From Escherichia coli (GTDB taxonomy: Bacteria > Pseudomonadota > Gammaproteobacteria > Enterobacterales > Enterobacteriaceae), in NCBI RefSeq assembly GCF_013122565.1, contig NZ_CP053258.1: a stretch of 64,000 bases of DNA. One strand, 5' to 3'. Under the pieces are notes generated by a model, which had not been told where the DNA came from, did no database searches, and worked only from the letters and a program-made list of their open reading frames with translations. Positions within the stretch are counted from its first letter, which is position 1. Every line of letters begins with the position of its first letter. Of this stretch, positions 8,762 through 28,600 are shown piece by piece. The translations under genes and the position numbers were made by a program.

Positions 8762-8790
8762 GAACGAATTATAACCACCTCGGGGCCGTG

Positions 8791-8818: not shown

Positions 8819-8999
8819 CCTGACTGTTGGGAAGTTGCGCCGGATCGAACCCATTTCAAGTCCTGGCTACCGGACGGGTGGTGCCGCAGGTAGTGCTCTG
8901 ATCCGGAGTGCAACATGGCGACTCAACATACGTAAACCAGTATCGACAGGCAGTGTAAGGGTAAGGTGCTGGTGTTGCGCTCCTTAATAAGGAGAGCGG

Positions 9000-9089: not shown

Positions 9090-9112
9090 CGGGCAAATTG
9101 AAACGCATCTAA

Positions 9113-9135
9113 GGGGGAATACCGTTTCCCCCTTT
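9113..9135 (+). terminator. Intrinsic terminator after toxin ORF copy 2
   Basis: Same hairpin as 8504-8526. Confidence 0.5.
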
Positions 9136-9270
9136 AATAAAGCTATACTCGTCATACTTCAAGTTGCATGTGCTGCGACTGCGTTCGTTCACCCCGGTCA
9201 CTTACTTTAGTAAGCTCCTGGGAATTCACTCGCTTATCGCCTTCCTGCAACTTGAATTATTTAGAGTATA

Positions 9271-9573
9271 TTATTCTATTTCTTGGTTGAATATATTCTG
9301 TAGTTCGCGATTAAAAATTGCTATTACCGTTTCAGGTGATTCACCTCGTAATTTCCGCTCATCAATACACTCATCTCTTATATAAATCAACGCATCATTT
9401 ATTTGCGGGTCGGCATCATTAAATGTTGGATGTAGCCGGAATCGCTCCAGCCGGTAGACGGAACCTGTAAATAATTCAGAGCATTTATGGATCTCAAGTC
9501 TGAAGGAAAACGGATCTTCAGGTACAGGGACCTCATAATCGTAAATAGCAACCAGCTCTTTTTGCACGATCAT
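9271..9573 (-). CDS. yehK: Small protein YehK
   Basis: 100-aa ORF directly downstream of yehI on the same strand; true start may differ slightly. Confidence 0.6.
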   Translation of the reverse strand: MIVQKELVAIYDYEVPVPEDPFSFRLEIHKCSELFTGSVYRLERFRLHPTFNDADPQINDALIYIRDECIDERKLRGESPETVIAIFNRELQNIFNQEIE

Positions 9574-9632
9574 CGCTTTCCCGTTGGTAAGTCGTGTTGA
9601 AAACGGGCAGTCGCATCACTGCCCGTTGTGTT

Positions 9633-12600
9633 TTAATGGAAAATGACGTCGGGTGCGCTTAACGCCTCACTCAAATCAAACACATCAAGTTCGGCAAAAG
9701 TGACGGATTTATTGTCACGGTACACTCGAAGAGAACGGAAGCTCATTAACGCTTTGCTATCAACATTGTAGTGGTTAAAACCGGGTGAAAACTTAAGGAC
9801 CAGCCGGTACTCGCCCAGGTCATAGACAAATGCATCCTCATAGCCTGACTCCCAGCCTTTGTATCGCATTCCCATAAGCTGCCCAACGGTAGCGGATTTA
9901 CCTTCCCAGCGAGTCAGGCTGTTACTGGTTGACTCGTCAGGTGTGAGCAGCACCGTGCGGCGCGACAACTGGCGAAAAGGCGGCATAATTTCGTAATCGG
10001 CAAAAAGCTGTGCAAATTCACTGCGCATTTCTGCTGTCATTTCTAACGGGTGGGCAATGCCAATCAGAGCATCCGCAGGCAGGTCAATGGGCTCATCTTG
10101 CGCATTGCAGAACTCACCCTCTGCGGCCACACGAAAGGCGTTGAGTAAACGACGCGGTTCATTTGCTGGATACACGCCCCATATTAATCGCTGAGTAACC
10201 AGGCGGGTAAAGGGATGATTAACAAACAGAGAATGAAAATCTGCCAGCGACCAGCGTCGGGTGGTACGTAGGGCTGCTTCAAGACGCGGGAGCAGGTTTT
10301 TGCTCACCTGGGTGGCATCTTTTTTTAGCCCTTTTAGTCGGGCCAGTGCCTCGGGCGCTTTCAGTTGATCGTCATCGGCGCGCAACCGGGGAACACTTTT
10401 CTGGCGAACGTTTTGTTGATCAAAGATAACCGGGTTGAGGTTTTCATCGAAGCGAACGGTAAACTGCCGGGGACCAAAATCAAAAATCAACGCCTGCGGA
10501 TCATCAAGACCCAGTGTTGGGACTAATCTGTCCGCTAACTCTTCCTGGCTTAGCCCGCGATTTTCTGCGACCACCTGAAGAAATTCCGCTGCGTTTTCAC
10601 GTAATGAAGAGGATTTCGCCCGTTGTGATACATGATGCAGCTGTATCAGCGCCATATCATTATTCATCAGGGTAAGTATATTCAGACCACTGACAGCACG
10701 GGCAGATTTGCCTTCTTGTGGCCAGGCGAGGATCTGTGTCGTTAGATCCCGTGCCGTGCTTTCGTCACCAAAGAGACTTAACGCCAGAAATGCCCAGTTG
10801 TCTTTTGCGGGGGCACCAGCTTGTTGCCAGGCGGTGAAGAGATCCCAGGCAAAAGCTGCCAGCGTTTGCGGCTGGCAGAACGATTTCAGTTGTTCCAGTC
10901 CGCTATAAAAACGTCCCCCCTGGGTAAAGCGCAGCATTTCGCCGATAATTTCCAGAGCGTCATCGGTAACAGGTTGATTATTAGTGATAAGTCGAGGCCT
11001 GGACCACATTGCCGGATGCCAGAAATCAGGGGCTTTTGGAATGCGTGCCGGGTAAATCTCTATTTGACTCTGTTTAAGTAATTGTTCCAGGGCAGGCCAT
11101 ACATCAGCGCGATCCCAGCGGTTTGCCACGGTTTGTAGTAATACGCCATGTCCCTGTTCATACAGTAAACGCAGGGCAAGTAATGCAGCTTCGCTATTAT
11201 CGCTGGATTTGGTGAAGACAAGAGGGATAAGTGCAGTAGCCGTATGTTCCGGCCATTGTAAAATCCACTGGCGGGCCAGATCACGCTGCGCCGCGAAACG
11301 TCGCCAGACGCGGGCAACAGGCAGGGCCAGTTCTGTTGCGCCAAAATGAATCAGCAGAGGAAATATCTCTTTTGGATGTCGGGCAAAGGCGGTGTTTAAT
11401 CCAGGCAAAGCATCGGTACCCAGCACACTTAACAGATATTCCCCCCCGGTGTAATGAAAATCAGCCTCGACAATTTGTTGCCAGCACGATACCGCCATTT
11501 CGTGCGGCATCTGCGCGATAAGGTACAGATTCCAAATCCCCCAACGCTTTTTATTACCATAGTAAAATCCGTGCTGAAAAGTTCGCCACCCTCCCATCAG
11601 CGCAATGCTATCTTGTGCCAGTAATGCTTTGGTGGCTTCTTCCCGGTACTGTTTAGATTTGGCCTGATACGCGTGATAAGTACGCAATAGTCCTATTGAT
11701 GTGTATTCTTGCAGTTGCTGAGCATCAAAGGCATCCAACTGTCCATGAAGAAGACGCTTATTAAATTCCAGGCTATGAACGTCAAAACCTAATTCCCGCA
11801 AGAAGGTATCCGCCCCTCTCTTAGCAAGACGTTCGTCAAAAGACATGGCGCTAAAATGGTCAATTGCAGTTTGCTGTTCCGGCGTCCAGTGTTTATTCGG
11901 CGACCTGTACGTTTGCGGTGCAAGCGTAAGATCAGGCAGCGAAAAGTGAGGTATGGAAGTCTTTTTCTTCCTCCCACGCCATGGTGGTGAAACGAGGATT
12001 TCAGGCATTTGGCTGTTATCGGTACTATCAATAACCGGTTTGGGCGGTGCCAATAAATAACTATTCAGTACTGCCCGGGCTTGAGTACTTAACCACTGCA
12101 TCACCTCTTCTGCCAGTTGTGGCTGCGATGCCATCAGCGTTTGTAACAGCGTACGCCAGTATTCATCTCGAGCTTTTTGCTGGGCAGGCAGCTTTTTGTC
12201 TTCGATGATTGGATAACCAGGGCGGGCTGGTGGTTCTTTTAACGCCAGCAGTTCTGCCAGTGCCGCGAGCGTCGCGTGGGGGAAGTTTTTACTGTATTTA
12301 GCCACACGTTGCAGGCTGGGTTTGTTTTTATCAGCCACCAGTAGCAAGGTGCGGATGACCTGCGGATGGTTAATTTGTACCAACAGACTGCCGCAATCTT
12401 CTTTATGGGCATACATCGCGAGGCGCGGAATGGCTGCCAGTCCTTGTTCGCGCAAAAGGGCGGCGCAGGCCGCGTAGCCGAAGTGGTTTTCATGCGACAT
12501 GTAGCTGGCTTCGCGATCGCTAAATATATCCTGACTCCAGTAGTGATCGAGTTTCCTCACCGCTGTGGGGTCATTAGCAACAACTTTTAGCCACTCCTTA

Positions 12601-13280
12601 GAATGATAATGAGTCCGTGGGCATTCAAGGCCTATCAACTCATTGGCGATTTCTGGTTTTTCCGGGAGGATCAGCGCAATAAAAGGGCGGCGAACTTTGG
12701 TTATTCCTGGCAGTGCGGCAATGAGTTTGTCGGCGCAACGCTGCCAGCAGCTTTCCTCTGCCAGAGAGAGATGCTTACGCAGTCGGAGATCGAATTCGTT
12801 ATAGGTTTCTGATCGATAACCATAGCCATAGTCCTCGTTCTGATACTGCAATGTCACTACCAGAGGATCACTCTCATAACACCGCGCAATAAACTGGCGT
12901 GCAATCACCACCTCAGTCGCATATTCCAGCCCCTCTTGTTGGACGATTTCGTCGAGTAACTGTTGGCTGTCATTTTGCGCGATACAGGCTAGCGCCGCCA
13001 TTGTCCGGGCCGGGATTGAGGGTTTGTGTTCGCCGATCAAGTTGATGGCCTGCGTGATGGCGGACTGCCACTCCAGTGAAAAATTCTCATAACGCCAGAC
13101 AATGTTTTTTTTCTTCTCAGCTTTTTGTAGCAATTCATCACCCAGTGTCTGAATGATGCTTTCAGTGATAACAGGCACTGGTTCGCCCGGCCAATTGCGA
13201 TGGCTGAGTGGTGTTTTGCCTTTTTTATATTTCAGTTCCAGTTGGGCGTTATCCGCCAGCCACGGTAATTCCTTGTCCAT
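9633..13280 (-). CDS. yehI: YehI, 1215-aa paralog of the molR family lacking the N-terminal WGR-like domain
   Basis: C-terminal two-thirds align with the four upstream paralogs (shared AWP..K.A..GL.IL, DRL.P.LGLD, LLPPFRQL blocks); AAGGAA SD 9 nt after upstream stop. Confidence 0.85.
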   Translation of the reverse strand: MDKELPWLADNAQLELKYKKGKTPLSHRNWPGEPVPVITESIIQTLGDELLQKAEKKKNIVWRYENFSLEWQSAITQAINLIGEHKPSIPARTMAALACIAQNDSQQLLDEIVQQEGLEYATEVVIARQFIARCYESDPLVVTLQYQNEDYGYGYRSETYNEFDLRLRKHLSLAEESCWQRCADKLIAALPGITKVRRPFIALILPEKPEIANELIGLECPRTHYHSKEWLKVVANDPTAVRKLDHYWSQDIFSDREASYMSHENHFGYAACAALLREQGLAAIPRLAMYAHKEDCGSLLVQINHPQVIRTLLLVADKNKPSLQRVAKYSKNFPHATLAALAELLALKEPPARPGYPIIEDKKLPAQQKARDEYWRTLLQTLMASQPQLAEEVMQWLSTQARAVLNSYLLAPPKPVIDSTDNSQMPEILVSPPWRGRKKKTSIPHFSLPDLTLAPQTYRSPNKHWTPEQQTAIDHFSAMSFDERLAKRGADTFLRELGFDVHSLEFNKRLLHGQLDAFDAQQLQEYTSIGLLRTYHAYQAKSKQYREEATKALLAQDSIALMGGWRTFQHGFYYGNKKRWGIWNLYLIAQMPHEMAVSCWQQIVEADFHYTGGEYLLSVLGTDALPGLNTAFARHPKEIFPLLIHFGATELALPVARVWRRFAAQRDLARQWILQWPEHTATALIPLVFTKSSDNSEAALLALRLLYEQGHGVLLQTVANRWDRADVWPALEQLLKQSQIEIYPARIPKAPDFWHPAMWSRPRLITNNQPVTDDALEIIGEMLRFTQGGRFYSGLEQLKSFCQPQTLAAFAWDLFTAWQQAGAPAKDNWAFLALSLFGDESTARDLTTQILAWPQEGKSARAVSGLNILTLMNNDMALIQLHHVSQRAKSSSLRENAAEFLQVVAENRGLSQEELADRLVPTLGLDDPQALIFDFGPRQFTVRFDENLNPVIFDQQNVRQKSVPRLRADDDQLKAPEALARLKGLKKDATQVSKNLLPRLEAALRTTRRWSLADFHSLFVNHPFTRLVTQRLIWGVYPANEPRRLLNAFRVAAEGEFCNAQDEPIDLPADALIGIAHPLEMTAEMRSEFAQLFADYEIMPPFRQLSRRTVLLTPDESTSNSLTRWEGKSATVGQLMGMRYKGWESGYEDAFVYDLGEYRLVLKFSPGFNHYNVDSKALMSFRSLRVYRDNKSVTFAELDVFDLSEALSAPDVIFH

Positions 13281-13289
13281 GCTCTTTCC

Positions 13290-16200
13290 TTATTCAAACA
13301 GGGCTTCAATATCATTAATTAACTCGCTGGTGGTGATGGCATCGAGTACGGAGAACTGCGCTTCCTGAGTTGAATTATTCCTCCAGCCATAGCTTTCTGC
13401 TTTGCCTTCCCATAGCCACAGCTTGCTTAAGAGCTGCTCGGCGCTAAGTTCGGCTGGCGACATACCCACAGCAAAGCCTTCATCGATTTCCATGATTAAC
13501 GACCAGCGGCCCAGGGGTTTGATCATCCAGCAGATCCAGCCTCCATCCTGTGGTTCGCCCTTTATCCAGCCTTTATTCGCCAGCCCCATGACCCGACCAC
13601 TCGGGCATTTTCTGCCTGCCCAGCGGGTCAGTTCGCTGGCGTTGCGCTCGGCTTCTGTCAGGGCGTAACTGTTACGGTCAAGCTGACGGAACGGTGGTAG
13701 CAGTTCGTAGTCGGCAAAAAGCTGACCAAAGGCGGCAGCATCCGTCGGTGATATTTCCAGAACGTGAGGAATACCAATAGAGATATCGCCTTCCGGCAGG
13801 GTGAAAAGATCATCGTCAGCGGTGCTGTAACTGTTATCTTCCGCCACGCGAAAGCACGCCAGCAGCTGGTTTTCGGCGCTATAAACGCCCCAAATCAGAC
13901 GACGGGTTAAGTGGCGAACCAGCGGGTGCTCAACCAGGAAAAGCTGAAAGTTTTCCGGCGACCAGCGGCGGCGCAGGCACATGGCGGATTCCAGCCTTGC
14001 TACCTGCTGGGCGGCGACGGTACGCGCATCTTTTTTCAGCAATTTGTAGCGGTTTACCGCCTCATCAGCCCGCGATTCATCATCGCTTTTATTGGGTTTA
14101 GGTAAGTCTTTCAGGCGGCTGCCGGAAACATCACGCACAAACGGTTTTAAGGTTTCATCAAAGCTGACGGTGAACTGGCGTGAGCCGAAATCCAGCAGCA
14201 ACGAACCGTTATCATCCAGACCGAGATCCGGGGCCAGGCGATCTTCTAGCTCCGCCACCGTGAGTTCGCGGCTTTCGGCAATGTCGGCAATTTTTTCTTT
14301 TGCCCGCTCCTGTAATGCTTTGAATTTCAGTTTCTGGGCGATGCCGTTAAGTTGCATCAAGGCGATATCACTACCGATAGTGGCGAGAATATCCAACCCA
14401 ACGGTGGCGCGTTTATGCTGGGATTCACCAGGCCAGGCACGGATTAATGGCGTCAGTTTGCGGGCGGTGTCATCGTTACCGAGAACACCTAACGCGTTGA
14501 ACGCCCAGCTCTCTTTCGACGGCGCGCCAGCGGTCTGCCAGGCGGTAAACAGATCCCAGGCAAATCCCGCCAGTGAGTCGGGGGTACAGGCATCTTTCAC
14601 CTGCAATAATCCCGGATACAGTGCCTCTTCCTGAGGGAAGCGGAGCATTTCACCGAGGTAGAGTAGGGCGCTATCGGGCAGTGATTGGGCGTTTGCTTTT
14701 AATACCGGGCGCGTCCAGAGCGATGGCTGATAAAAGGCCGGAAGAGTGGGGATTTTTGTCGGGTGATTATCTAAGGGATCGAGCGCAAGCAGAGCGTTCA
14801 CCGCGTCTGTTACTTCCGGCTGGTTATAACGCCGGGCGATTTCTTGCAGTAATGGCTGATGACCGTTTTCGGTAAGCATACGCAAGGCAGCGCGGGCGTT
14901 ATCCTGTGCTTCACCGGCTTTGCCGAGCGCGGCAGGCAGCAGGCCGGTAATGGCGTGTTCCGGGTATTTCAACAGCCAGCTACGGGCGTCTTGTCGTAGG
15001 GTTTTGAGTTTGTTGAAGGCGCGGGCAATCAGTGGCGCTAATTCGATAGCCGCAAAATATTGTGCTATAGGCAGCGCTTCTTGCGGATAGCGAGATGCTG
15101 AGTGGATAAAACCTGTTAAACCAGCAAGTCGAAGATGCAACATTACTTGTTTTGCACCTGTATGTGGTTCTTTACTAAGGATGTTCCACATCTCGATAGC
15201 TTTATTAATGGGTAAAACATGGAGTGAAGAAAGATTCCATTCGCCCTGATAAGGGGAGTTATAGGACTTAAAAGCATCAATCAGCGCTGAATAATCTTCA
15301 CGCTGCCAGGCATCCAGTGCTATTTCTGGAACATCAATATAGCCTCTATGTTTGTTCCAATCCCAGCGGTTGAATCCCAGGGAGGTCAGAAAAGCTTTTT
15401 CTCCCTCAGCTTGCTGATGAGGTTGCCAGTTATGCTGCACTTGCAGTGTTTTGCTTTTTGTTTCATTTATTGTACAGAAGGATTCTAGGGATAATGGTGC
15501 TAAATCCAGCACCGAAATCGTCGATTTTTTCTTTTTAGCCAGCCAGGGCGGTGAGATTAGTACGGCAGGCAGCAAATCGGCGTTCGCATAAACTGAAGGT
15601 TGTGTCAGTTGTTGCAGGCATGACTTAAGTTCGGTAACCGCCGGAGCAGATAGCCAGGGAATTACCTGCTCTGCTAATGTTGGTTGTGAGATAAGCATTG
15701 TCATTAGCATCATGCGCCAGCGCTTTTCATCTTTTTGTGCCAGAAGTTCTGCTAATGCCGCCAGCGCTGCATGTGGAAAGCGAACGAAAGCCTTTGTCAT
15801 GCGATCGTGGCAACGCTTTCCCTGCTCGCTTGCATGGATAAGTAGTGTAAGTGCCTGGGGGTGGTTGATATGCATCAACACTTCCCCACATGTGTCACCA
15901 GCAGCGTAAGGAGCAAAACGGGCCAGCGCAGCGACACCTTGCTCCTTGAGTATCGTTGCACACCAGATTTTACCGCCGTAATAATCATCAAATACCTGCC
16001 CAGGCTGTCCTGGATAGTATTTTCCCAGTTCTGCCAATACCTGCTCGTCGGTGGTCGTCAGTTTCAGCCATTCCAGCGCATATAACCCTTTTTGTCCACA
16101 AAGATGTCTGGCAATCTCATGAGCTACTTCTGGTTTTTCCGGCAACAATAGTGCAACCAGTGGCTGGTGCCACGTGGGCATGGTTCCGAGAGCGGCAATC

Positions 16201-17048
16201 AGTTTGTCGGCGCAGCGCTGCCATACATCGTCATTTGCAAGTGAGAGATGCTTACGCAGGCGCATTTCAACCGAAGCGAAGCGTAACAGATAGCCAGGCT
16301 GCCTGTTATCCGGGGTAACCGTAATGAGATGGGCATCATAATCCCAGTCGAAGCGGATGAATTGCAATGCAATGACAACCTCAGTGGCATATTCCAGACC
16401 ACCTTCCTGGACAATTTGATCCATTAGCTCTTCATGATCGTTACGATTGAAGCCTTGTTCCAGCGCAACCAGTACCGCCAGAACCATCGGTGGTAGCGTG
16501 GTGCTAATTGGCGAGTCGATAAGGCCTACGGCTTGTGTAATTGCCTGCTGCCAGTCCAGTGAACAGGTGCTGTAATCGAAGGTGAGCACCTTTTTAAAAC
16601 GCCGGTGAGTATTCGCGGCGACGGAGCGTAGCAGGGTTAATTCATTCTCCTGTGGCACAGGAGCGCCAGGCCAGCGTCGATGACTTAGTGTGGTTGGCGC
16701 AACCTCTGTCGGTAAAATGATTTGGGTGTCGTCTGCCAGCCAGGGGAGGTGGTCTCCAGTAAATGCCGGTTTGTCTTGTGGCAAAGGGGTTATTTCCGGG
16801 CATTCGATAACCTTGCCGGGCGCAGATGTCGGTGTCATCACGGATACTTCTTCTACGTAGCCCTTTTTTGTTTTCTCCGTAATCAGCTTCAGTTCCGCTT
16901 TTTCCGCCGCTGCAGCATCTGCAAAGCTTTTTACCTGGCTTTGCCCGTTAGTACCGACTTTGCCCCAGGTAATATGCAGCTCGTTTCCCTGCTGCTCCAC
17001 CGCCCAGAATTTATGTGATTTTTCATCCTGATAAATATAGGTTTTCAT
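13290..17048 (-). CDS. MolR-family protein, paralog D (1252 aa), N-terminal WGR-like domain
   Basis: Intact ORF; N-terminus MKTYIYQDEKSHKFWAVEQQGNELHITWGKVG; start 12 nt downstream of paralog C stop with AAGGAA SD. Confidence 0.85.
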   Translation of the reverse strand: MKTYIYQDEKSHKFWAVEQQGNELHITWGKVGTNGQSQVKSFADAAAAEKAELKLITEKTKKGYVEEVSVMTPTSAPGKVIECPEITPLPQDKPAFTGDHLPWLADDTQIILPTEVAPTTLSHRRWPGAPVPQENELTLLRSVAANTHRRFKKVLTFDYSTCSLDWQQAITQAVGLIDSPISTTLPPMVLAVLVALEQGFNRNDHEELMDQIVQEGGLEYATEVVIALQFIRFDWDYDAHLITVTPDNRQPGYLLRFASVEMRLRKHLSLANDDVWQRCADKLIAALGTMPTWHQPLVALLLPEKPEVAHEIARHLCGQKGLYALEWLKLTTTDEQVLAELGKYYPGQPGQVFDDYYGGKIWCATILKEQGVAALARFAPYAAGDTCGEVLMHINHPQALTLLIHASEQGKRCHDRMTKAFVRFPHAALAALAELLAQKDEKRWRMMLMTMLISQPTLAEQVIPWLSAPAVTELKSCLQQLTQPSVYANADLLPAVLISPPWLAKKKKSTISVLDLAPLSLESFCTINETKSKTLQVQHNWQPHQQAEGEKAFLTSLGFNRWDWNKHRGYIDVPEIALDAWQREDYSALIDAFKSYNSPYQGEWNLSSLHVLPINKAIEMWNILSKEPHTGAKQVMLHLRLAGLTGFIHSASRYPQEALPIAQYFAAIELAPLIARAFNKLKTLRQDARSWLLKYPEHAITGLLPAALGKAGEAQDNARAALRMLTENGHQPLLQEIARRYNQPEVTDAVNALLALDPLDNHPTKIPTLPAFYQPSLWTRPVLKANAQSLPDSALLYLGEMLRFPQEEALYPGLLQVKDACTPDSLAGFAWDLFTAWQTAGAPSKESWAFNALGVLGNDDTARKLTPLIRAWPGESQHKRATVGLDILATIGSDIALMQLNGIAQKLKFKALQERAKEKIADIAESRELTVAELEDRLAPDLGLDDNGSLLLDFGSRQFTVSFDETLKPFVRDVSGSRLKDLPKPNKSDDESRADEAVNRYKLLKKDARTVAAQQVARLESAMCLRRRWSPENFQLFLVEHPLVRHLTRRLIWGVYSAENQLLACFRVAEDNSYSTADDDLFTLPEGDISIGIPHVLEISPTDAAAFGQLFADYELLPPFRQLDRNSYALTEAERNASELTRWAGRKCPSGRVMGLANKGWIKGEPQDGGWICWMIKPLGRWSLIMEIDEGFAVGMSPAELSAEQLLSKLWLWEGKAESYGWRNNSTQEAQFSVLDAITTSELINDIEALFE

Positions 17049-17060
17049 TGCAAATTCCTT

Positions 17061-18500
17061 TTAATCAAACAGTGATTCAATATCGTTAATCAGCTCGCTG
17101 GCAGTGATGTCGTCGAGCACGGAGAAGGGATAAACCGATTTGCGCGGCGTCAGTTTGTACAACTGAATGTGCTCAATTTTTTGGTTATCGCTGATTTCGG
17201 TGACGGGCAATCCAACACAGAAGCCGGGTGTCACACTCAGTTCGACGTAGCCATCATCCACAGCTTTATAAAATGAGTAATAGCCGCCACCATCCAGAAC
17301 ATCGCCCCGTTGCCAGCCTTTATTCATCAGCCCGGCGACGCGCCAACTCGCTGCCTGGCGACCAGCCCAGCGCTGCAAATCGTTGCTGTTTTTTTCTGAA
17401 TCAGAGAGCTGAGACCAGGGGCGATCAAGTTGACGGAACGGTGGCAGGAGTTCGTAGTCAGAGAACAGTTGGGCAAATTCAGCAGCCTGTGGGGCCGGGA
17501 TTTCCAGCACATGCGGGATACCGATACAGCCCTGCGCAAGGGTAAACGGGGTATCCTGACCGTCGCTAAAACTGCCATCCTCCGCCACGCGAAAACAGCA
17601 AATAAGGTGATTATCAGCGTCATAAATGCCCCACATCAGACGTTGGGTGATATGACGAACCAGGGGATGCTCAACCAGAAACAGGCGGAACTGTTCTGCA
17701 GTCCAGCGGCGACGCTGACACATGGCGGCTTCCAGACGCGAAATCTGTTGTGCAGCTACCGTGCGGACATCTTTTTTCAACAACTTGTAGCGATTTACCG
17801 CTTCCTCAGCCAGCGTTTCATCATCGCTTTTGTTCGGTTTGGGCAGGTCTTTCAGACGGTTGCCGGAAGTATCGCGCACAAACGGTTTTAAGGATTCATC
17901 AAAGCTGACGGTGAACTGGCGTGGGCCGAAATCCAGCAGCAGCGAACCGTTATCATCCAGACCGAGATCGGGCGCTAACCGGTCTTCCAGCTCTGCGACA
18001 GTGAGCTGGCGGCTTTCGGCAATCTGGGCGATTTTAGTTCTAGCCTGATCCTGCAAGGCTTTAAATTTTAGCTTTTGCGCAATGCCGTTAAGCTGCATCA
18101 GGGCGATATCGCTGCCGATAGCAGCAAGAATATCCAGCCCGACAGTGGCGCGTTTATGCTGGGATTCCCCCGGCCAGGCGCGGATGAGCGGGGTGAGTTT
18201 GCGGGCGGTGTCATCGTTACCCAGAATCCCCAGTGTGGTAAATGCCCAGTTATCTTTAGCTGAGCCACTGGCAGATTCCCAACTGAGGAAGAGATCCCAG
18301 GCAAAATCGGCAAGAGATTGCGGGGTACAGGCCTCGATTACCTGTGTAATTCCTGGGTAAAGGGTGGCTTCGCGGGGGAAAGAGAGCATGGTGCACAGGT
18401 GCAGGATGGCTGAATCTGAAAGTGCCTTGCCGTTACTGCGCAGAAGCGGGCGGTGCCATACTTCTGGCGAACACCACCCAGGGAGTTTAGCGATTTTCTG
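17061..18500. repeat. ~1.45-kb near-identical block shared by paralogs C and B (copy 1)
   Basis: C-terminal ~480 codons of paralog C are nearly identical to paralog B (20910..22350); antisense spurious ORFs are duplicated too. Confidence 0.8.
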
Positions 18501-20897: not shown

Positions 20898-20909
20898 TGC
20901 AAATTCCTT

Positions 20910-22350
20910 TTAATCAAACAGTGATTCAATATCGTTAATCAGCTCGCTGGCAGTGATGTCGTCGAGCACGGAGAAGGGATAAACCGATTTGCGCGGCGTC
21001 AGTTTGTACAACTGAATGTGCTCAATTTTTTGGTTATCGCTGATTTCGGTGACGGGCAATCCAACACAGAAGCCGGGTGTCACACTCAGTTCGACGTAGC
21101 CATCATCCACAGCTTTATAAAATGAGTAATAGCCGCCACCATCCAGAACATCGCCCCGTTGCCAGCCTTTATTCATCAGCCCGGCGACGCGCCCACTCGC
21201 TGCCTGGCGACCAGCCCAGCGCTGCAAATCGTTGCTGTTTTTTTCTGAATCAGAGAGCTGAGACCAGGGGCGATCAAGTTGACGGAACGGTGGCAGGAGT
21301 TCGTAGTCAGAGAACAGTTGGGCAAATTCAGCAGCCTGTGGGGCCGGGATTTCCAGCACATGCGGGATACCGATACAGCCCTGCGCAAGGGTTAACGGGT
21401 TATCGTGACCGTCGCTAAAACTGCCATCCTCCGCCACGCGAAAACAGCAAATAAGCTGATTATCAGCGTCATAAATGCCCCACATCAGACGTTGGGTGAT
21501 ATGACGAACCAGGGGATGCTCAACCAGAAACAGACGGAACTGTTCTGCAGTCCAGCGGCGACGCTGACACATGGCGGCTTCCAGACGCGAAATCTGTTGT
21601 GCAGCTACCGTGCGGACATCTTTTTTCAACAACTTGTAGCGACTTACCGCTTCCTCAGCCAGAGTTTCATCATCGCTTTTGTTCGGTTTGGGCAGGTCTT
21701 TCAGACGGTTGCCGGAAGCATCGCGCACAAACGGTTTTAAGGATTCATCAAAGCTGACGGTGAACTGGCGTGGGCCGAAATCCAGCAGCAGCGAACCGTT
21801 ATCATCCAGACCGAGATCGGGCGCTAACCGGTCTTCCAGCTCTGCGACAGTGAGCTGGCGGCTTTCGGCAATCTGGGCGATTTTAACTCTTGCCTGATCC
21901 TGCAAGGCTTTAAATTTTAGCTTTTGCGCAATGCCGTTAAGCTGCATAAGAGCGATATCGCTGCCGATAGCAGCAAGAATATCCAGCCCGACAGTGGCGC
22001 GTTTATGCTGGGATTCCCCTGGCCAGGCGCGGATGAGCGGGGTGAGTTTGCGGGCGGTGTCATCGTTACCCAGAATCCCCAGCGCGGTAAATGCCCAGTT
22101 ATCTTTAGCGGAGCCACTGGCAGATTCCCAACTGAGGAAGAGATCCCAGGCGAAATCAGCAAGAGACTGCGGAGTACAGGCCTCGATTACCTGTGTAATC
22201 CCGGGGTAAAGGGTGGCTTCACGGGGGAAAGAGAGCATGGTGCACAAGTTCAGGATAGCTGAGTCAGGAAGTGCCTTGCCGTTACTGTGCAGAAGCGGGC
22301 GATGCCATACTTCTGGCGAACACCAGGTGGGGAGTTTGGCGATTTTCTGC
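20910..22350. repeat. ~1.45-kb near-identical block shared by paralogs C and B (copy 2)
   Basis: See 17061..18500. Confidence 0.8.
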
Positions 22351-24650
22351 GGAAAATTATCGAGTGGGTCGCAGTTAAGGACATCTAACAAACCTGTAAG
22401 CACTTCTGGCTGATTATAGCGGTGGGCAATTTGTTCCATTAACGGCTGATGCCCATGATGAGCCAAATAGCGTATTGCCATCACAGCATCCTCACGTTCA
22501 CTGCCCGGTTTGCCGAGTACAGCAGGTAATAGACCTGTAATAGCATGTTCCGGATAGGTTAATAACCAACGCTGTGCGACGTCACGTACAGATTTTAGCT
22601 GACGAAAAGCGCGTGCCATTAATAGCGCCACGTCGGTTGTACCAAAACGTGCGGCTAAAGGAATGGCTTCCTGAGGTACGACTAAGGCGTGACGCAGCAA
22701 GCCGGGTAATGTGGGAAGACCGTAATAGTCCACTACTTCGCATGCGTTAATCAGATGTAGGTGAGTCAGTGCGTTCCATATTTTCAGTGCTTTATTTTCT
22801 GTTAGCTGAAGCAATACAGACACATTGACAAGGATATGACTTGCCCACCGAGGTTTATCCCAGATCTTTAATAAAGCTTCGTAATTGTCTTGCTCGAAAA
22901 AATCAATGGCAGCCTGAGGTATACCCCAACCAAGCTCTTCGCAATGGAAGTTCAACAAATCCAGGATATCTTTCGCTGATGGGGATGGCGCAGATGGCTC
23001 AGTCAGATTTTTTGTTGCGGGGATAGATTCCAGGGGGGAAAGAGGTAATACCCGGAGAGTGAGGTTGATACCAGCAACCTTTTTCTTTTTTTTCACCCAT
23101 GAAGGGGCGATCAATATACTAGGTAACTCATTCTGATGAGCAATTTTTTCGCTGGACATAAGCTGAGGAAAATAACTAAATAAAATTTGTTGCTGTTTTT
23201 CGTCAAGGCAGGGTAGCGTTTTATGTAAGGCTTGCGCATTACCCAAGATGATGCGCTCCAGTAAACGATAATAGCGCGGGTTATTTGTGTGATTTAAGGC
23301 TTTTGTTAATGCATAAAGTGCAGCTTCTGGATGTAAATTTGTTGCGCATTCCACTTCACTGATACATTCTTCTTTTATTAATATATTAATGGCGTCAGGA
23401 TGATTAACTTGTGTAATTAGATTTTTAACTGAATAACTATCCTTTATCCAACGCTGAAGAAGCGGAAGAGCTTTTACCCCTCGTTCGCGCAGTAATGTCG
23501 CAGTGCATTTTTCAGCCATCTGCCAGTCGTTATAGCGCTTAAGTTGGTTAAGATTCATTAATTCATTGAGTGCCTGCGCATCTGTGGCAACGATATCCAA
23601 CCATTCCATTTCTGGGTAATTAACACATTGCACTAAATCAAGGACAATTTGATTAGCAATTTCAGGTTGTTCAGGCAAAAGAAAACCAATTAAAGGACGT
23701 TTACGTGGAGACAGGAAAGGCAACGCTTGAGTAAGCTTTTTCATGCACCGTTGCCATGTTTTTTCATCAGTGCGCGAGAGATGATTTCGCAAGTGAAAAT
23801 CTACAGTGCTGAAGCCGAACTCAAAACGTTGTTCTGATATTGTGTTACTGAGAATAAGCGTTGGTACGGAATTATTTGTAAAAAAATTGTATTCCATGCG
23901 AACATACAAAAGGCATTTATTTAATGCATCACAATTTCCTGGATCTTGATTTTGATCATCAGATATCTGAATTTGCTGCAATAGCAAGACTAATTCGGTC
24001 GCGTATTCTACCCCATGTTGTTGCACCAGATAATCAAAAAGATCATTGACACTATCGCTATTTTGCATAAGTAACTTGACCAGCAAAAAGAATGCATCGG
24101 AGAAAATAGAACCGTCTATATTTTTCTGCTGAACGCGCATGATTGCTTCATCCCGGCCTCGTTGCCATTCCGGGCGGCAGTCACTCACATCAAAATGCTG
24201 TAATTGTGCAAGAAAATAGTATTCCTCATATTTGTTTTCCCATAAGAATGACCATAACGAGATATCTTTAGCAAACGTGCTGACACTGTCTGCTGGGAAT
24301 TTCCTACTGCTAAATACTCTCTTCGTTTCGAGAATAATTGGTTCAATGTCTGCAATCCACGGTGGTGTGTCGACATCAGTAATAATTGGATGTTGTTCGC
24401 TATCATCATCTGTGGTGGGAACAGCAATCAGCATGTTTATATCGTCAGTCGATTTTACATACCCCTTCTTCACCTTCTCCGCAATCAGCTTCAGTTCCGC
24501 TTTTTCCGCCGTTGCAGCATCTGCAAAGCTTTTTACCTGACTTTGCCCGTTAGTGCCGACTTTGCCCCAGTTGATATGCAGCTCGTTGTCTTGCTGCTCA
24601 ACCGCCCAGAATTTATGTGATTTTTCGTCCTGATAGATATAGGTTTTCAT
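20910..24650 (-). CDS. MolR-family protein, paralog B (1246 aa), N-terminal WGR-like domain
   Basis: Intact ORF; same N- and C-terminal blocks as paralog C, divergent middle. Confidence 0.85.
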   Translation of the reverse strand: MKTYIYQDEKSHKFWAVEQQDNELHINWGKVGTNGQSQVKSFADAATAEKAELKLIAEKVKKGYVKSTDDINMLIAVPTTDDDSEQHPIITDVDTPPWIADIEPIILETKRVFSSRKFPADSVSTFAKDISLWSFLWENKYEEYYFLAQLQHFDVSDCRPEWQRGRDEAIMRVQQKNIDGSIFSDAFFLLVKLLMQNSDSVNDLFDYLVQQHGVEYATELVLLLQQIQISDDQNQDPGNCDALNKCLLYVRMEYNFFTNNSVPTLILSNTISEQRFEFGFSTVDFHLRNHLSRTDEKTWQRCMKKLTQALPFLSPRKRPLIGFLLPEQPEIANQIVLDLVQCVNYPEMEWLDIVATDAQALNELMNLNQLKRYNDWQMAEKCTATLLRERGVKALPLLQRWIKDSYSVKNLITQVNHPDAINILIKEECISEVECATNLHPEAALYALTKALNHTNNPRYYRLLERIILGNAQALHKTLPCLDEKQQQILFSYFPQLMSSEKIAHQNELPSILIAPSWVKKKKKVAGINLTLRVLPLSPLESIPATKNLTEPSAPSPSAKDILDLLNFHCEELGWGIPQAAIDFFEQDNYEALLKIWDKPRWASHILVNVSVLLQLTENKALKIWNALTHLHLINACEVVDYYGLPTLPGLLRHALVVPQEAIPLAARFGTTDVALLMARAFRQLKSVRDVAQRWLLTYPEHAITGLLPAVLGKPGSEREDAVMAIRYLAHHGHQPLMEQIAHRYNQPEVLTGLLDVLNCDPLDNFPQKIAKLPTWCSPEVWHRPLLHSNGKALPDSAILNLCTMLSFPREATLYPGITQVIEACTPQSLADFAWDLFLSWESASGSAKDNWAFTALGILGNDDTARKLTPLIRAWPGESQHKRATVGLDILAAIGSDIALMQLNGIAQKLKFKALQDQARVKIAQIAESRQLTVAELEDRLAPDLGLDDNGSLLLDFGPRQFTVSFDESLKPFVRDASGNRLKDLPKPNKSDDETLAEEAVSRYKLLKKDVRTVAAQQISRLEAAMCQRRRWTAEQFRLFLVEHPLVRHITQRLMWGIYDADNQLICCFRVAEDGSFSDGHDNPLTLAQGCIGIPHVLEIPAPQAAEFAQLFSDYELLPPFRQLDRPWSQLSDSEKNSNDLQRWAGRQAASGRVAGLMNKGWQRGDVLDGGGYYSFYKAVDDGYVELSVTPGFCVGLPVTEISDNQKIEHIQLYKLTPRKSVYPFSVLDDITASELINDIESLFD

Positions 24651-24662
24651 TGCTAAATCCTT

Positions 24663-27600
24663 TTAATCAAACAGTGATTCGATGTCGTTAATCAGCTCGC
24701 TGGCGGTGATGTCGTTGAGCACGGAGAAAGTGGGTGAGGATTGTTTACCATAGCGATCATAAGGGGCGGTGATTTTTACGCTTTCGACAGGCAGCAGGTC
24801 GCTATACCCCGTTTCGCCATAAATTAATGAAAAAGGTTCTGTTTCAAGTTCGAGAGCGCCATAAGGGGTAGATTTGCGCATCGCATAGATGCTGCCGCTT
24901 TCTTCCAGACGTTGCCAGCCTCTGCGTTCCAGCCCGACAATGCGTCCGGCCTGGCAGAGACGTCCGTTCCAGCGTGACAATTCATGGGCATCACGCTCGT
25001 TATCCGCAAGGTGGTAACTACCACGATCGAGCTGTTGGAAAGGGGGAAGCAGTTCGTAATCAATGTATATTTGCCTGAATGCAGCGGCGGATTCAGGGGG
25101 GATTTCCAGCACATGCGGAATACCGATGTTTCCTGCTGGCAGCGTGAATAGCTCATCCTGCGCATCGCTGTAAGTGCTGTCTTCTGCCACACGAAAACAG
25201 GTGATAAGGGCGTTTTCATCGTTATAAACCCCCCATAACAGCCGTCGGGTTAAGTGACGTACCAGCGGATGCTCCACCAGAAACAGGCGGAACTGCTCTG
25301 CCGTCCAGCGTCTGCGCTGGCACATAGCCTGCTCCAGACGATCAATCTGCTGGCTGGCAATGGCGCGCACATCTTTCTTCAATTGTTTAAAGAGGTTAAC
25401 GGCGTCAGTTGCCAGTGTTTGATCATCGCTCTGGTTTGGTTTGGGTAAATCTTTCAGGACTTTGCCGTTTGCGTCGCGAACCACGGGTTTCAAGGTTTCG
25501 TTAAAACCAACGGTGAATTGACGTGGGCCGAAATCAAGTGTCAGCGAGCCATTGCTATCAAGCCCTAAATCTGGAGCCAGGCGGTCTTCCAGTTCAGCCA
25601 TAGTCAGCCCACGGTTTTCAGCAACTATGTTGATTTTCTCGCGGGCATGTTCCTGTAATGCTTTGAATTTAATTTTTCGCGCGATGCCATTAAGCAGCAT
25701 TAGCGCAACATCGCTGCCAATATCAGCTAATACATCCAGCCCGGACACCGCCCGTTTATGCTGGGATTCCCCAGGCCAGGCGCGGATGAGCGGAGTTAAT
25801 TTACGCGCGGTGTCGTCATTGCCTAAAATCCCAAGCGAAGTAAATGCCCAGTTTTCTTTTGCTGGGGCACCAGCTTCTGTCCAGGCGGTATACAGATCCC
25901 AGCCAAAGTCAGCCAGTGATTCGCGGGTGAAGGTTTCTCTAATGATATCCAGCCCAGCGTAGGCGGTAATGTCGCGTGGAAAGCTCAACATTGTGCCGAG
26001 GTGGCGCATAGCGTCATCTGGCAGAGGCAGGTTGTTACTTTTAAGCCGAGGTCTGTGCCATAAGGTGAACTGATAAAAGCCGGGCAGTGGGGCGATTTTT
26101 GCAGGATATTCTTCCAGTGGGTCGCTATCAAATAATGTTGCCAGCGCAGCTAAAACATCAGGTTGATTATATCCTTGGGCGATTTCCTCAATCGTTTCTC
26201 GCTGGTTTAAATTCACCAGCAGGCGGAGCGCCTGGCGGGCACAATCACGATCTTTTCCTTTTTTGCCCAGGGCCACAGGAAGTAGCCCGGCGGCGGCATG
26301 GCGCGGATAATCAGTTAGCCAGTTTCGCGCATCTTCATAAGACATTTTTTTCTGTAATTGTTGCGCCATCGGTAAGGCCAGTTCACTGACACCGAGGAAA
26401 AAGGGGAAGAAGCACAGGCGTCGTGGATCACGTTGCAGGCAGGTCATAAATGCAGGTATGGCGGCGCTACCAAAAAGTGCCAGAATATTTCCCTCACCAG
26501 AGTAGTTATCTTCTTTGACTATCTGGTTAAGAAAAGAAATGGCCTGTTGACCAGGCAGGTAACAGAGGGCAATAAGATTCCAGCTTTTGTATGCATTGTT
26601 ATGGTATTGCACAAATTCAGCATTCAATGCTGGAAAATCGAAGCGTAGCAGGGCATCAACGGCACTTTGTGGCGCCGGAATTTTTTCGTATATTTTTTCT
26701 CCGCTCTCCCGCCATTTTTCAAAACCAAGATGCCACAGTATTTGTTGCTCCGGTGTAAGCGGTATTAAGTGTTTCTCCCAGCTTGCTTTTTTCATCGGTG
26801 CCAGGTCGGTAAACAATGTTTGTTTTGTCGCCTGCTGTTGGGCTATTTGCTGGAAGCGGGTGATAAGGTAAGTACGGGTCAGTTTTTTGGCAATCTCTGG
26901 AGTGATATCCGAAACAGAAGGAACTGGGAGCACAGGAAGATCAAACACCGGCGTATTTTTCTTTTTCTCTTTGGTCATCCAGGGAGGCGAAACAAACAGC
27001 TCTGGCAACATATCCGCAGTGGCATATTCACATTCTTCAGCGACTGACTGCGGACGACATTCAGATAAGATGCCAGCGGCTTTGGCATTAACCCAGGGAA
27101 TGACGTCGCATACTAACTCTGGCGTGATGGTAATCAGTTTGATAAGTGCGTTACGCCACTGTGCATCTTCATGTATTGCCAGCAAAGTAGCATAAGCGGC
27201 AAGAGCCGCAGCGGGATGTTTTTGACAGGCTTTGCTTAAGTATTCCAGGTGCTTTTTCTTGCCAATCACACCGAGGATCAGAATTTGAATCGCATCCGGG
27301 TGATTCGTTTTCCATAGCCATTTGACAAGATTTTCAGTCTCGCTGTTGCGCTCGAAAAGATAAGTGGGATTGTCAGAATGCTCTTCCGTAAACTCAAGAA
27401 GGATCTGGCTTACACCCCGAATTCCATTATTCGCCAGCAACATTGCCAGATAAGCGCGAAAATTACGAAAATCACGATACAACGGTGGGAAGTCGTATTT
27501 TTCCACTGTACTAAGAGCAGTATCATCGGTTATCACCAGTCTTAACCAGGTCATCGCCGGAACGTTTTGGTCTGCATAGCGTAGAGCCATAGCATTGGCA

Positions 27601-28469
27601 ATATCCGGGCGTTCAGGGAGCAGTAACGCCGCAAAAGGTTGCCGTGCTGGAGATAGCGAGGGAATAGCCGCGAGTACTTTATCTACACAGCGTTGCCACT
27701 CATCTTCTGAAGCGAGTGAAAGATGATGACATAGACGTTGATGCCAACTAGGTAGCGATTCTGCTTCGTGATTAGGTGGAATGATGGTGGTTACTGCGCC
27801 TTTTACTGGTTTATATCTAAGTTGAATAGCGAGAAGGGCAATTTCAACGGCGCTTTCCAGACCACAGCGAATGACTAAGTCATCGACCAGTTCATCTGCA
27901 GAGTAAGAGTTCCAGAAACTCCAGAGCAATGCTGCATCAGATTGCGCACTCCCTGTCTGTTGATTACCCTGAACTCGCATTTGTAACTCAGCAAAAGCAT
28001 GCTGCCAGTTTTCTGGATAAGAACGGTAATTGTTGTCGGGATCATATGCCCTGGTGTTATCTGCAATACGCTTCCATATCTCACCGTCTTTGCGCAGATA
28101 ATTGATCTCTCTGGGGCGAGAGCGATGAGGGAAAGCAAATCGATTAATATCGTCAGTTACCGGAATGACTGCATCATCAGCCAGCCATGGGCGTTTGTTT
28201 TTACTCTCAAGGGAAGTTTCAACTTCAGGAGTGGCTTTGGTGCTGGAGATATGCACGTTTGCTGAAGCATCTTCCACATAGCCTTTTTTCGTTTTCTCTG
28301 CGATAAGCTTTAGTTCCGCTTTTGCCGCTGCCGCAGCATCCGCAAAACTTTTTACCTGGCTTTGCCCTTGGGTGCCAACTTTTCCCCAACTGATATGCAA
28401 CTCGTTTCCCTGTTGCTCCACCGCCCAGAATTTATGTGATTTTTCGTCCTGATAGATAAAGCGTCTCAT
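24663..28469 (-). CDS. molR: MolR-family protein, paralog A (1268 aa), first gene of the array next to metG
   Basis: Intact ORF; N-terminus MRRFIYQDEKSHKFWAVEQQGNELHISWGKVG; occupies the K-12 molR (pseudogene) position. Confidence 0.8.
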   Translation of the reverse strand: MRRFIYQDEKSHKFWAVEQQGNELHISWGKVGTQGQSQVKSFADAAAAAKAELKLIAEKTKKGYVEDASANVHISSTKATPEVETSLESKNKRPWLADDAVIPVTDDINRFAFPHRSRPREINYLRKDGEIWKRIADNTRAYDPDNNYRSYPENWQHAFAELQMRVQGNQQTGSAQSDAALLWSFWNSYSADELVDDLVIRCGLESAVEIALLAIQLRYKPVKGAVTTIIPPNHEAESLPSWHQRLCHHLSLASEDEWQRCVDKVLAAIPSLSPARQPFAALLLPERPDIANAMALRYADQNVPAMTWLRLVITDDTALSTVEKYDFPPLYRDFRNFRAYLAMLLANNGIRGVSQILLEFTEEHSDNPTYLFERNSETENLVKWLWKTNHPDAIQILILGVIGKKKHLEYLSKACQKHPAAALAAYATLLAIHEDAQWRNALIKLITITPELVCDVIPWVNAKAAGILSECRPQSVAEECEYATADMLPELFVSPPWMTKEKKKNTPVFDLPVLPVPSVSDITPEIAKKLTRTYLITRFQQIAQQQATKQTLFTDLAPMKKASWEKHLIPLTPEQQILWHLGFEKWRESGEKIYEKIPAPQSAVDALLRFDFPALNAEFVQYHNNAYKSWNLIALCYLPGQQAISFLNQIVKEDNYSGEGNILALFGSAAIPAFMTCLQRDPRRLCFFPFFLGVSELALPMAQQLQKKMSYEDARNWLTDYPRHAAAGLLPVALGKKGKDRDCARQALRLLVNLNQRETIEEIAQGYNQPDVLAALATLFDSDPLEEYPAKIAPLPGFYQFTLWHRPRLKSNNLPLPDDAMRHLGTMLSFPRDITAYAGLDIIRETFTRESLADFGWDLYTAWTEAGAPAKENWAFTSLGILGNDDTARKLTPLIRAWPGESQHKRAVSGLDVLADIGSDVALMLLNGIARKIKFKALQEHAREKINIVAENRGLTMAELEDRLAPDLGLDSNGSLTLDFGPRQFTVGFNETLKPVVRDANGKVLKDLPKPNQSDDQTLATDAVNLFKQLKKDVRAIASQQIDRLEQAMCQRRRWTAEQFRLFLVEHPLVRHLTRRLLWGVYNDENALITCFRVAEDSTYSDAQDELFTLPAGNIGIPHVLEIPPESAAAFRQIYIDYELLPPFQQLDRGSYHLADNERDAHELSRWNGRLCQAGRIVGLERRGWQRLEESGSIYAMRKSTPYGALELETEPFSLIYGETGYSDLLPVESVKITAPYDRYGKQSSPTFSVLNDITASELINDIESLFD

Positions 28470-28577
28470 TCTGCATCCCTGTAATTTTATCCAGTTGAAT
28501 GCAGATGCTACCAGTATTTATGCGGGTTAGAGAGAGACAAAATCGCAAGAAAACAACTTTAGGAATTTATAAAGAAA

Positions 28578-28600
28578 AGGCGCTGTCGATGCAGCGCCTT
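28578..28600 (-). terminator. Probable metG intrinsic terminator
   Basis: aaggcgctg-tcgatg-cagcgcctt hairpin followed on minus strand by T-rich run. Confidence 0.5.

Follow-up and report, generated by a model that had tools for sequence, protein, structure and literature searches.

Five intact WGR-DUF4132-family genes beside metG in Escherichia coli as candidate interchangeable subunits of a conserved YehLMPQ machine

The molR (yehH) and yehI genes of Escherichia coli belong to a very large family (6152 clusters), which more than 99% of E. coli genomes carry and which has figured in lists of the SOS regulon since 2000, and none of the five component types encoded at their locus has a known function or solved structure. 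In a review, molR is listed among the genes with a known SOS box (PMC6590174), and its promoter is activated by BglJ-RcsB in a phasing-dependent manner, with the binding site and the transcription start mapped (PMC3950696). Here we describe this locus in the window, a stretch of 64,000 nucleotides from the E. coli contig NZ_CP053258.1 (assembly GCF_013122565.1). It holds an array of five intact copies, called E, D, C, B and yehI in the order in which they follow metG, whereas K-12 has one pseudogene plus yehI and other complete genomes have at most three copies of the WGR type. Paralog E is the molR orthologue, located at the same place after metG and behind the same promoter, including the LexA box and the BglJ-RcsB site, and the window yehI is the orthologue of K-12 yehI; the window adds the rare types B, C and D and a rare cassette allele of yehI. 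A sequence-only reading of the window had put the array forward as a candidate for an undescribed system, which holds for its function, but not for its regulation, since molR had already been placed in the LexA/SOS regulon and under BglJ-RcsB (PMC6590174, PMC3950696). The gene family, its Pfam families and the SOS box are thus known. The intact five-copy array, the precise location and behaviour of the variable cassette, the role of gene conversion and junction repeats, and the linkage to yehLMPQ across phyla with a variable number of sensor copies appear to be new, being absent from the open-access literature text.

The genes downstream of the array invite comparison with the MoxR-VWA pairs RavA-ViaA, NorQ-NorD, CbbQ-CbbO, CoxD-CoxE and the Mg- and Co-chelatases, with which the locus shares adjacent genes for a MoxR ATPase and for a VWA protein with an intact metal ion-dependent adhesion site (MIDAS). 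The yeh locus differs from these pairs in two extra conserved partners, a DUF5682 protein and a double-SWIM protein, in a large partner that carries a WGR domain and a hypervariable cassette and comes in 1-8 paralogous copies, and in a neighbourhood with no metallo-enzyme target. Purely by analogy with the chelatases, whose I/D or S/T subunits go with a large H/N subunit, the yeh partner of about 1250 residues could be a substrate or adaptor like BchH or CobN. The vWA-MoxR-VMAP systems are reportedly ternary NTP-dependent conflict systems, in which a MoxR and vWA core works with large diversifying proteins. The yeh locus resembles them in this combination and in being enriched in bacteria of complex lifestyle and large genome size (Myxococcota, Actinobacteria, Burkholderiales). 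Among general Pfam and NCBIfam matches, a search that included no profiles specific to VMAP proteins or effector-associated domains, neither was recognised at the yeh locus. A full-text count in the paper on these systems (Kaur et al. 2020, PMC7159879) gives zero for the term SWIM, which makes it improbable that the yeh partner set is treated there. The HsdS genes of type I restriction-modification systems and other phase-variable specificity loci are alike in that bounded variable modules are exchanged between alleles or paralogs by recombination, and in that one enzymatic core serves alternative specificity subunits. They have no relationship to the yeh proteins in sequence or fold, and no methylase, nuclease, inversion or recombinase machinery is found in the yeh system, where a specificity role would fall to the cassette. 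We give an even chance to the reading that the five genes encode expanded, interchangeable sensor or adaptor subunits of one conserved YehLMPQ machine, whose single-copy core would consist of YehL (MoxR-type AAA+), YehM (DUF5682), YehP (VWA with MIDAS) and YehQ (double SWIM).

A scan of the window for open reading frames (ORFs) revealed five head-to-tail genes of 1215-1278 amino acids on the minus strand, with zero internal stops. Paralog E (24663-28469, 1268 residues), paralog D (20910-24650, 1246 residues, a rare type), paralog C (17061-20897, 1278 residues, the rarest type) and paralog B (13290-17048, 1252 residues) were identified by ORF and Pfam matches as WGR-DUF4132 proteins, E additionally by AlphaFold models; yehI (9633-13280, 1215 residues) carries DUF4132 without WGR, as judged from its ORF, Pfam and alignment with K-12 YehI. 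The spacers between successive genes are 12, 12, 12 and 9 nucleotides long, and each contains a Shine-Dalgarno sequence, AAGGA(A/T), 7-8 nucleotides 5' of the ATG. The layout agrees with the sequence-only reading, which had given four ORFs of 1246-1278 residues plus a yehI of 1215 residues, spaced by 9-12 nucleotides with a Shine-Dalgarno sequence for each gene. That reading had also proposed one operon starting beside metG. The operon-like arrangement stands, with the refinement that metG (28610-30652), the 5' neighbour, has its own intrinsic terminator on the minus strand (28577-28600; a 9-bp stem with 6 GC pairs and a T-run in a terminator scan), which separates the array from metG, and that the array has its own molR-type promoter. 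Pairwise amino acid identity is 69% between C and D, about 49% between B and either of them, about 46% between E and B, C or D, and 33-41% between yehI and the others. Proteins that go by the name 'WGR and DUF4132' or 'molybdate metabolism regulator' share 84-95% identity with paralog E. The gene order metG, array, yehK, yehLMPQ, yehR is the same as in annotated E. coli genomes, and the flanking DNA from metG to apbC is 99.6% identical to that of six E. coli strains.

Downstream of the array follow yehK and then yehL, yehM, yehP and yehQ, all intact and all on the minus strand. YehL (6872-7963) is a MoxR-class AAA+ ATPase (AAA_5) with the Walker A motif GEPGTAKS, RavA-like on inspection; its NCBIfam matches to GvpN, MadB and McrB are weak, and AAA_5 was recorded on the orthologue from a metG-linked locus of another enteric genus (L008). 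YehM (4582-6864) matches DUF5682 (PF18934, E = 1e-96), and its N-terminal motif GxRHHSPxCA...LIEGP is invariant across phyla (alignment A7). The motif resembles the catalytic motif of TraB/PrgY/TIKI-type hydrolases, and YehM may be a hydrolase of this kind, but Pfam, NCBIfam and PDB profile searches lent this no support. YehP (3453-4592) is a VWA protein with an intact MIDAS, D223-Q-S-G-S, VWA_CoxE and VWA_2 being recorded on its orthologue. YehQ (1456-3459) has two SWIM zinc fingers, with CxC..CxH at residues 71-81 and 167-177; the Pfam SWIM matches are weak (E = 0.0013 and 0.12), and the PGAP name is SWIM zinc finger family protein.

The linkage of these four genes to DUF4132 genes was examined in a scan of relatives that used one genome per species and yielded 70 loci from Enterobacterales, Burkholderiales, Xanthomonadales, Myxococcota, Actinobacteria, Holophagales and Geobacterales. 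Among the 47 loci with at least 8 kb of downstream sequence, to which the synteny count was restricted, yehL-M-P-Q directly followed the last DUF4132 gene on the same strand in 32, and lay directly upstream in 3, all from Burkholderia; the 35 linked loci represent at least six bacterial phyla or orders. The other 12 were mostly extra Massilia copies, and Massilia contigs with the full locus were recovered as well. Tandem arrays have as many as 7-8 members in Massilia and 3 each in Duganella, Klebsiella and Rhodoferax, with pairs elsewhere, and each is accompanied by a single yehLMPQ core set. Judged by this conserved synteny, the functional unit extends to yehLMPQ, and the array forms the enlarged front part of that system. 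In six Massilia loci (L019, L040, L041, L027, L057 and L056), 4-8 full-length WGR-DUF4132 genes of 1150-1260 residues stand head-to-tail upstream of one yehLMPQ, and orphan copies occur on further Massilia contigs without yehLMPQ.

Profile searches showed that the WGR-like block which had been read at the N-termini of four paralogs, but not of yehI, is a true WGR domain: PF05406 matches B to E (best E = 1.1e-18, over residues 7-69) and does not match yehI, which starts at the PWLAD motif that comes after the linker in the other paralogs. DUF4132, suggested for checking by profile, was found in all five (PF13569, E = 6e-51 to 7e-52, full model 1-179 covered). The WGR region also matches the WGR protein 2ra8 in the PDB (E = 3e-17) and folds in the AlphaFold model as a beta-sheet with a helix at a predicted local distance difference test score (pLDDT) above 90. 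The paralogs are built of the WGR domain (lacking in yehI), a disordered linker, an ARM/HEAT-like solenoid, the variable cassette, and a strongly conserved C-terminal module of about 600 residues that comprises a HEAT solenoid and the DUF4132 alpha/beta domain. In the model of E residues 1-700 (pLDDT 81.7), the linker is disordered at residues 72-87 and ARM/HEAT-like helices span residues 106-493; the cassette is of low confidence (pLDDT 47-84), and residues 641-1268 were modelled at pLDDT 93.7. A Foldseek search with the 1-700 model returned only 2ra8 and weak solenoid matches, and PDB searches gave no solved relative for the DUF4132 core, YehM or YehQ. The C-terminal blocks that had been described as shared are so in B to E, whereas yehI has diverged versions of them. 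In a full HMMER scan, the 6152 clusters (at 50% identity) related to E align, when distant, mainly over E residues ~660-1266, well beyond the 180-residue Pfam DUF4132. Long family members owe their extra length mostly to low-complexity linkers, apart from one internal duplication and one histidine-kinase fusion, and informative domain fusions were therefore rejected. The duplication, in a 1673-residue member (P0182), repeats the C-terminal DUF4132 module and thus places a tandem arrangement within a single polypeptide. The fusion, a protein of 1776 residues on a metagenome contig (L009, 6883-12213), joins a membrane histidine kinase (HATPase_c, with HisKA only a faint match) to WGR-DUF4132, with a response regulator upstream and AAA_5 downstream; this arrangement hints at a signalling output.

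How the parts might work together can be proposed from these domains and from synteny. The WGR domain of PARPs binds and senses DNA ends and breaks. In the paralogs WGR may likewise bind nucleic acid, the cassette would set the recognition target of each paralog, and the conserved C-terminal module would dock on the pair formed by the YehP MIDAS and the YehL ATPase, so that the DUF4132 proteins would be clients or adaptors of the MoxR-VWA core, as their gene linkage suggests. MIDAS sites, whether of the integrin type or in the Rea1 MIDAS domains, bind an acidic ligand residue. Across the family, the last helix of the paralogs keeps Ser1257 and Glu1258 without exception or almost so, depending on the sequence set, and because of this property of MIDAS sites Glu1258 is a candidate docking residue and the Ser-Glu pair a candidate MIDAS ligand. 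The ATPase would then use ATP to remodel or activate the bound complex, and the whole would be switched on by DNA damage (SOS) and by BglJ-RcsB. The analysis offers a concrete, testable architecture of shared docking module, variable cassette and MIDAS-ATPase core. Should the link be confirmed, the system would stand for a new class of MoxR-VWA machine that acts on nucleic-acid-associated targets, and an old orphan of the SOS response would gain a role.

The central ~500 residues had been described as strongly divergent. A variable core does exist; the window paralogs are diverged over residues ~70-800 (9-49% column identity, versus 52-77% in the last ~450 residues), and the truly hypervariable part is a cassette of 130-300 residues immediately after a conserved PPWxxKKK motif. 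In E, the cassette core (26550-26957, minus strand, residues ~505-640) directly follows PPWMTKEKKK. This stretch has the lowest conservation of all, with a column identity of 9-24% among the window paralogs and of 4-15% in a comparison of 30 distant family members. The clearest instance is yehI, whose cassette (11361-11960, minus strand, residues 441-640 by alignment to K-12) is a rare allele. The window YehI and the K-12-type YehI are about 98% identical over residues 1-440 and 640-1215 and about 30% identical over residues 441-640, the divergence starting right after SPPWRxKKK. The DNA of the window cassette is present in 48 of the 5426 complete E. coli genomes, whereas the gene itself is nearly universal. 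In another strain's E-type allele, the equivalent block is likewise replaced (dS ~1.2). Derivation of the yehI cassette from another window paralog was rejected, since identity is just 21-38%.

The ratio of nonsynonymous to synonymous substitutions (dN/dS) was determined against the orthologues in six other strains. It is 0.12-0.23 for the five paralogs (B, 0.12; C against strain MB53, 0.22), 0-0.02 for metG and apbC, 0-0.04 for yehL, 0.03-0.10 for yehP, about 0.10 for yehQ and about 0.15 for yehM. These values, which for yehLMPQ together run from 0 to 0.15, show the intact copies to be constrained, the paralogs more loosely than housekeeping genes, and gene-wide positive selection was rejected. 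Within one type of yehI cassette, dN/dS rises to 0.38-0.90, whereas the flanking parts of the gene, with comparable dS, have 0.06-0.14.

The termini of the paralogs, conserved as had been claimed, owe their conservation in part to concerted evolution. In a sliding Nei-Gojobori analysis of the proportions of synonymous (pS) and nonsynonymous (pN) differences among the window paralogs, the WGR block (first 60 codons) gave a pS of 0.04 for B-C and of 0.21-0.26 for C-D and B-D. Between C and D, pS is 0-0.11 in the last ~480 codons, while synonymous sites elsewhere are saturated (0.7-0.9); the near-identical DNA of these two genes amounts to about 1.4 kb, a length at which a short-read assembly of the array could go astray. 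Other pairs show a pN of 0.06-0.2 with a pS of 0.5-0.87 in the C-terminal part. The conserved ends therefore have two causes, gene conversion and purifying selection. Alignment of the gene junctions revealed direct repeats of about 300 nucleotides on the minus strand, at 16829-17123 (C/B), with equivalents at ~20678-20972 (D/C) and ~24431-24725 (E/D). Each consists of about 60 nucleotides from the end of the upstream gene, the spacer with its Shine-Dalgarno sequence and a WGR block of about 220 nucleotides, and the B and C copies are identical over ~300 nucleotides. Strain UTME-7 has yehI, B and a frameshifted D body that carries an E-type WGR block, the expected product of unequal crossing-over in a junction repeat. 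The junction repeats and the C-terminal parts thus undergo gene conversion and unequal crossing-over, by which copy number shifts and the shared ends stay uniform while the cassettes diverge.

The array promoter and 5' untranslated region (28470-28576, minus strand) are the equivalent of the K-12 molR promoter. This region shows 99% conservation in 4 strains, and the 140 nucleotides upstream of E do not differ from the K-12-type sequence. It contains the LexA box CTGGATAAAATTACAG (28479-28494), a CTG-N10-CAG with an all-A/T spacer located 10-25 nucleotides before the ATG, which is present in all 6 of the E. coli loci compared. The metG-linked locus of the other enteric genus has the LexA-like variant CTGGATAAAAACACAG (3282-3297 of L008) at the same distance before its first DUF4132 gene, although the surrounding promoter has diverged. 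In Deinococcus, the DUF4132 gene DRA0166 and the WGR gene DR2173 belong to the DdrO/IrrE DNA-damage regulon and are de-repressed on depletion of DdrO (PMC8533742). In E. coli, yehL and yehM are up-regulated in hns/stpA mutants, with an H-NS binding signal in the intergenic region there (PMC3686432). In the whole window CTG-N10-CAG occurs 35 times against 14 expected, an excess that stems partly from the paralog repeats, such as CTGCTCCACCGCCCAG, which stands in two WGR blocks (16992 and 20841) and, with one base changed, at 24594.

As to what such a machine would act on, we lean very slightly towards conflict-type surveillance of foreign or damaged nucleoprotein over an endogenous DNA-damage role. 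The polymorphic cassettes, the repertoires that vary between strains and the frequency of pseudogenes speak for conflict; an endogenous role is favoured by the SOS and Deinococcus links, by a fixed location in the core genome, by absence from phages and plasmids and by the zero PADLOC matches. The fuller proposal is a widespread immune-like system of WGR-DUF4132 proteins and YehLMPQ that answers DNA damage or invaders, with one MoxR-VWA motor and a sensor repertoire, grown by tandem duplication, whose cassettes recognise different foreign proteins or nucleic-acid structures. We offer it tentatively, as a possibility that is on balance doubtful. If true, bacteria would here have a germline-encoded design of 'one engine, many receptors', which nearly all E. 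coli carry but which is broken in K-12. The sequence-only reading had likened the array to the diversifying modules of conflict systems; the bounded allelic cassettes, the raised dN/dS within them, the pseudogenes and the response of yehL/yehM to loss of hns/stpA accord with this, while the purifying gene-wide dN/dS of 0.12-0.23, the lack of PADLOC matches, the absence from phages and near-absence from plasmids and the core-chromosomal position do not.

Several results weigh against the machine or its role in conflict. At the Walker B position YehL reads R-F-E-E where hhhhDE is usual, which makes its ATPase competence uncertain, and a 1.2-kb insert carrying zor-orz toxin-antitoxin modules between the array with yehK and yehLMPQ means that co-transcription is not assured. 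The cassette dN/dS stays below 1, so relaxed constraint could explain the cassette values. No nuclease, protease, toxin or other effector domain was recognised among the Pfam and NCBIfam matches. None of 11 locus proteins (the five paralogs and YehK, L, M, P, Q and R) matched PADLOC-DB v2.0.0, and a known defence system was rejected on this ground. The tblastn search gave 0 matches in 50,697 phage records, and the plasmid matches, 30 records, are mostly megaplasmids or of chromosome size; with almost no true plasmids among them, an origin from phage or plasmid was rejected. The position beside metG is fixed in the core of more than 99% of E. coli genomes, unlike that of most mobile defence islands. 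Upstream of non-enteric loci, CTG-N10-CAG was found in just 2 of 55, compared with 6 of 55 control regions, and LexA control conserved beyond enterics was rejected. Lastly, broken copies in many strains and the broken yehQ of K-12 indicate that the system is dispensable in the laboratory.

The same machine may instead serve the cell itself. SOS-induced scaffolds that bind breaks or lesions would then recruit the MoxR-VWA remodeller to damaged or stalled nucleoprotein for repair or tolerance rather than against invaders. WGR being the break-sensing domain of PARPs accords with such a role, as do the core chromosomal position, the absence from phages and plasmids and the lack of PADLOC matches. 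The LexA box with SOS regulon membership (PMC6590174) and the de-repression of DRA0166 and DR2173 when DdrO is depleted (PMC8533742) point in the same direction. Allelic cassettes of ~30% identity inside genes of ~98% identity would be unexpected for a repair factor, however, as would paralog repertoires that differ from strain to strain and frequent pseudogenes that include core genes, and the LexA box is restricted to enterics. We regard this endogenous role as unlikely, though the most serious of the competing explanations.

The distribution of the copies bears on whether all of them matter. Copy number had been named as something to compare across E. coli genomes, and it proved polymorphic: with a 783-nucleotide conserved probe that picks up all four WGR-type copies of the window, the complete genomes (5336) carry a median of 1 such copy and never more than 3, and the window has 4 plus yehI. 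The locus itself was found in 5421 of the 5426 complete genomes, and no record among the 5426 covers at least 80% of the 19-kb region. Searched with the 1.6-kb variable part of each type in the 5426 genomes, E is present in 1643, B at full length in 22, D in 9 and C in 4 (2 at full length), and the exact B, C and D protein sequences are not on record in public assemblies. The window order E-D-C-B-yehI agrees piecewise with strains MB53 (D-C-B-yehI) and USMARC-49610 (E-D-B-yehI). Frameshifts, fragmentation and IS1 insertions have damaged many copies in these and further strains, and core genes are sometimes broken too, yehQ in K-12, yehM in O157 and both yehL and yehM in 11899A. In a K-12-type genome we found one frameshifted DUF4132 gene plus yehI, as had been stated for K-12 in the sequence-only reading, and the broken molR and yehQ of this standard laboratory strain may explain the lack of a reported phenotype. 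The window, with five intact sensor-type genes and an intact yehLMPQ, is the largest and most intact version seen.

Such figures could also mean that the extra copies are neutral, decaying by-products of unequal crossing-over, so that at most one WGR copy and yehI matter. Most genomes do have a single WGR-type copy, B, C and D are often frameshifted, fragmented or IS-cut in other strains, the junction repeats supply a mechanism of duplication, and in ST131 the transposon TnMB1860 has inserted here without obvious cost (PMC9334617). Against this, none of the five window copies is interrupted in its 1215-1278 codons, B, C and D have orthologue dN/dS values of 0.12-0.22, the saturated synonymous sites in the centres mark the paralogs as old and hence kept for a long time, and large arrays arose independently in Massilia and other genera. 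We consider neutrality of the extra copies improbable.

The historical annotation makes MolR a transcription factor of molybdate or molybdopterin metabolism, and database names ('molybdate metabolism regulator', 'MolR family transcriptional regulator') as well as the description of WGR as the DNA-binding domain of MolR-like transcription factors (PMC7824862) still follow it. No molybdenum-related genes are present in the conserved neighbourhood of the 70 loci, where the conserved partners are yehLMPQ; the proteins are solenoids of 1250 residues in which no transcription-factor effector domain was recognised; K-12, from which the name comes, carries a pseudogene; and the Deinococcus genes moeA and moeB showed no covariation with the DUF4132 gene of that genus (PMC8533742). 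We consider the molybdate role very improbable. Hardly credible is an array of polymorphic toxins or secreted effectors of the Rhs or CDI type, to which a row of giant paralogs, each with conserved parts on either side of a variable one, has a superficial likeness, since here the variable module is central and the C-terminus the most conserved part, spacers of 9-12 nucleotides leave no space for immunity genes, no signal peptide, secretion or toxin domain is among the Pfam, NCBIfam and PADLOC matches, and the partners are cytoplasmic ATPase and VWA proteins.

Base composition along the array is uneven. The GC content per 1-kb window drops to 0.44 inside C (19000-19999), to 0.45 where C and D adjoin and to 0.39 inside D (23000-23999), and it reaches 0.51-0.55 elsewhere in the array; yehM, yehP and yehQ are at about 0.55, above the E. 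coli average. This would fit a GC-rich source lineage together with faster drift of the variable parts.

Mobile elements are on record in the region. In the ST131 sublineage L1a, 184 isolates have the resistance transposon TnMB1860, with blaCTX-M-15 among its genes, at the metG/DUF4132/yeh region (PMC9334617), and MB53 has IS1 and ISVsa5 insertions at the same place. The array is a tolerated insertion site. Eight PHROG families (phrog_20839, 28101, 36602, 30700, 33984, 31592, 29006 and 36295) match yeh proteins (1456-28469) nearly end to end with very high scores; these matches probably stem from host DNA in over-extended prophage predictions.

Between the array and the core genes lies yehK (9271-9573, minus strand), a small gene of 100 residues identified by its ORF and annotated as yehK in E. 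coli genomes; it has no counterpart in the metG-linked locus of the other enteric genus and no tblastn match in 70 other loci. The intergenic region between yehK and yehL is occupied by the zor-orz insert (8038-9255), which is absent from K-12. It consists of a 609-nucleotide unit, tandemly duplicated, that makes up two type I toxin-antitoxin modules of a kind known from O157:H7 (PMC2887945). Each unit contains an OrzO-P antitoxin small RNA recognised by Rfam (8072-8145 and 8681-8754, minus strand, 89-90 bits) and, on the plus strand, a toxin ORF of 29 residues with the sequence MDTLT[Q/K]KLTVLIAVLELLVALLRLIDLLK (8391-8480 and 9000-9089).

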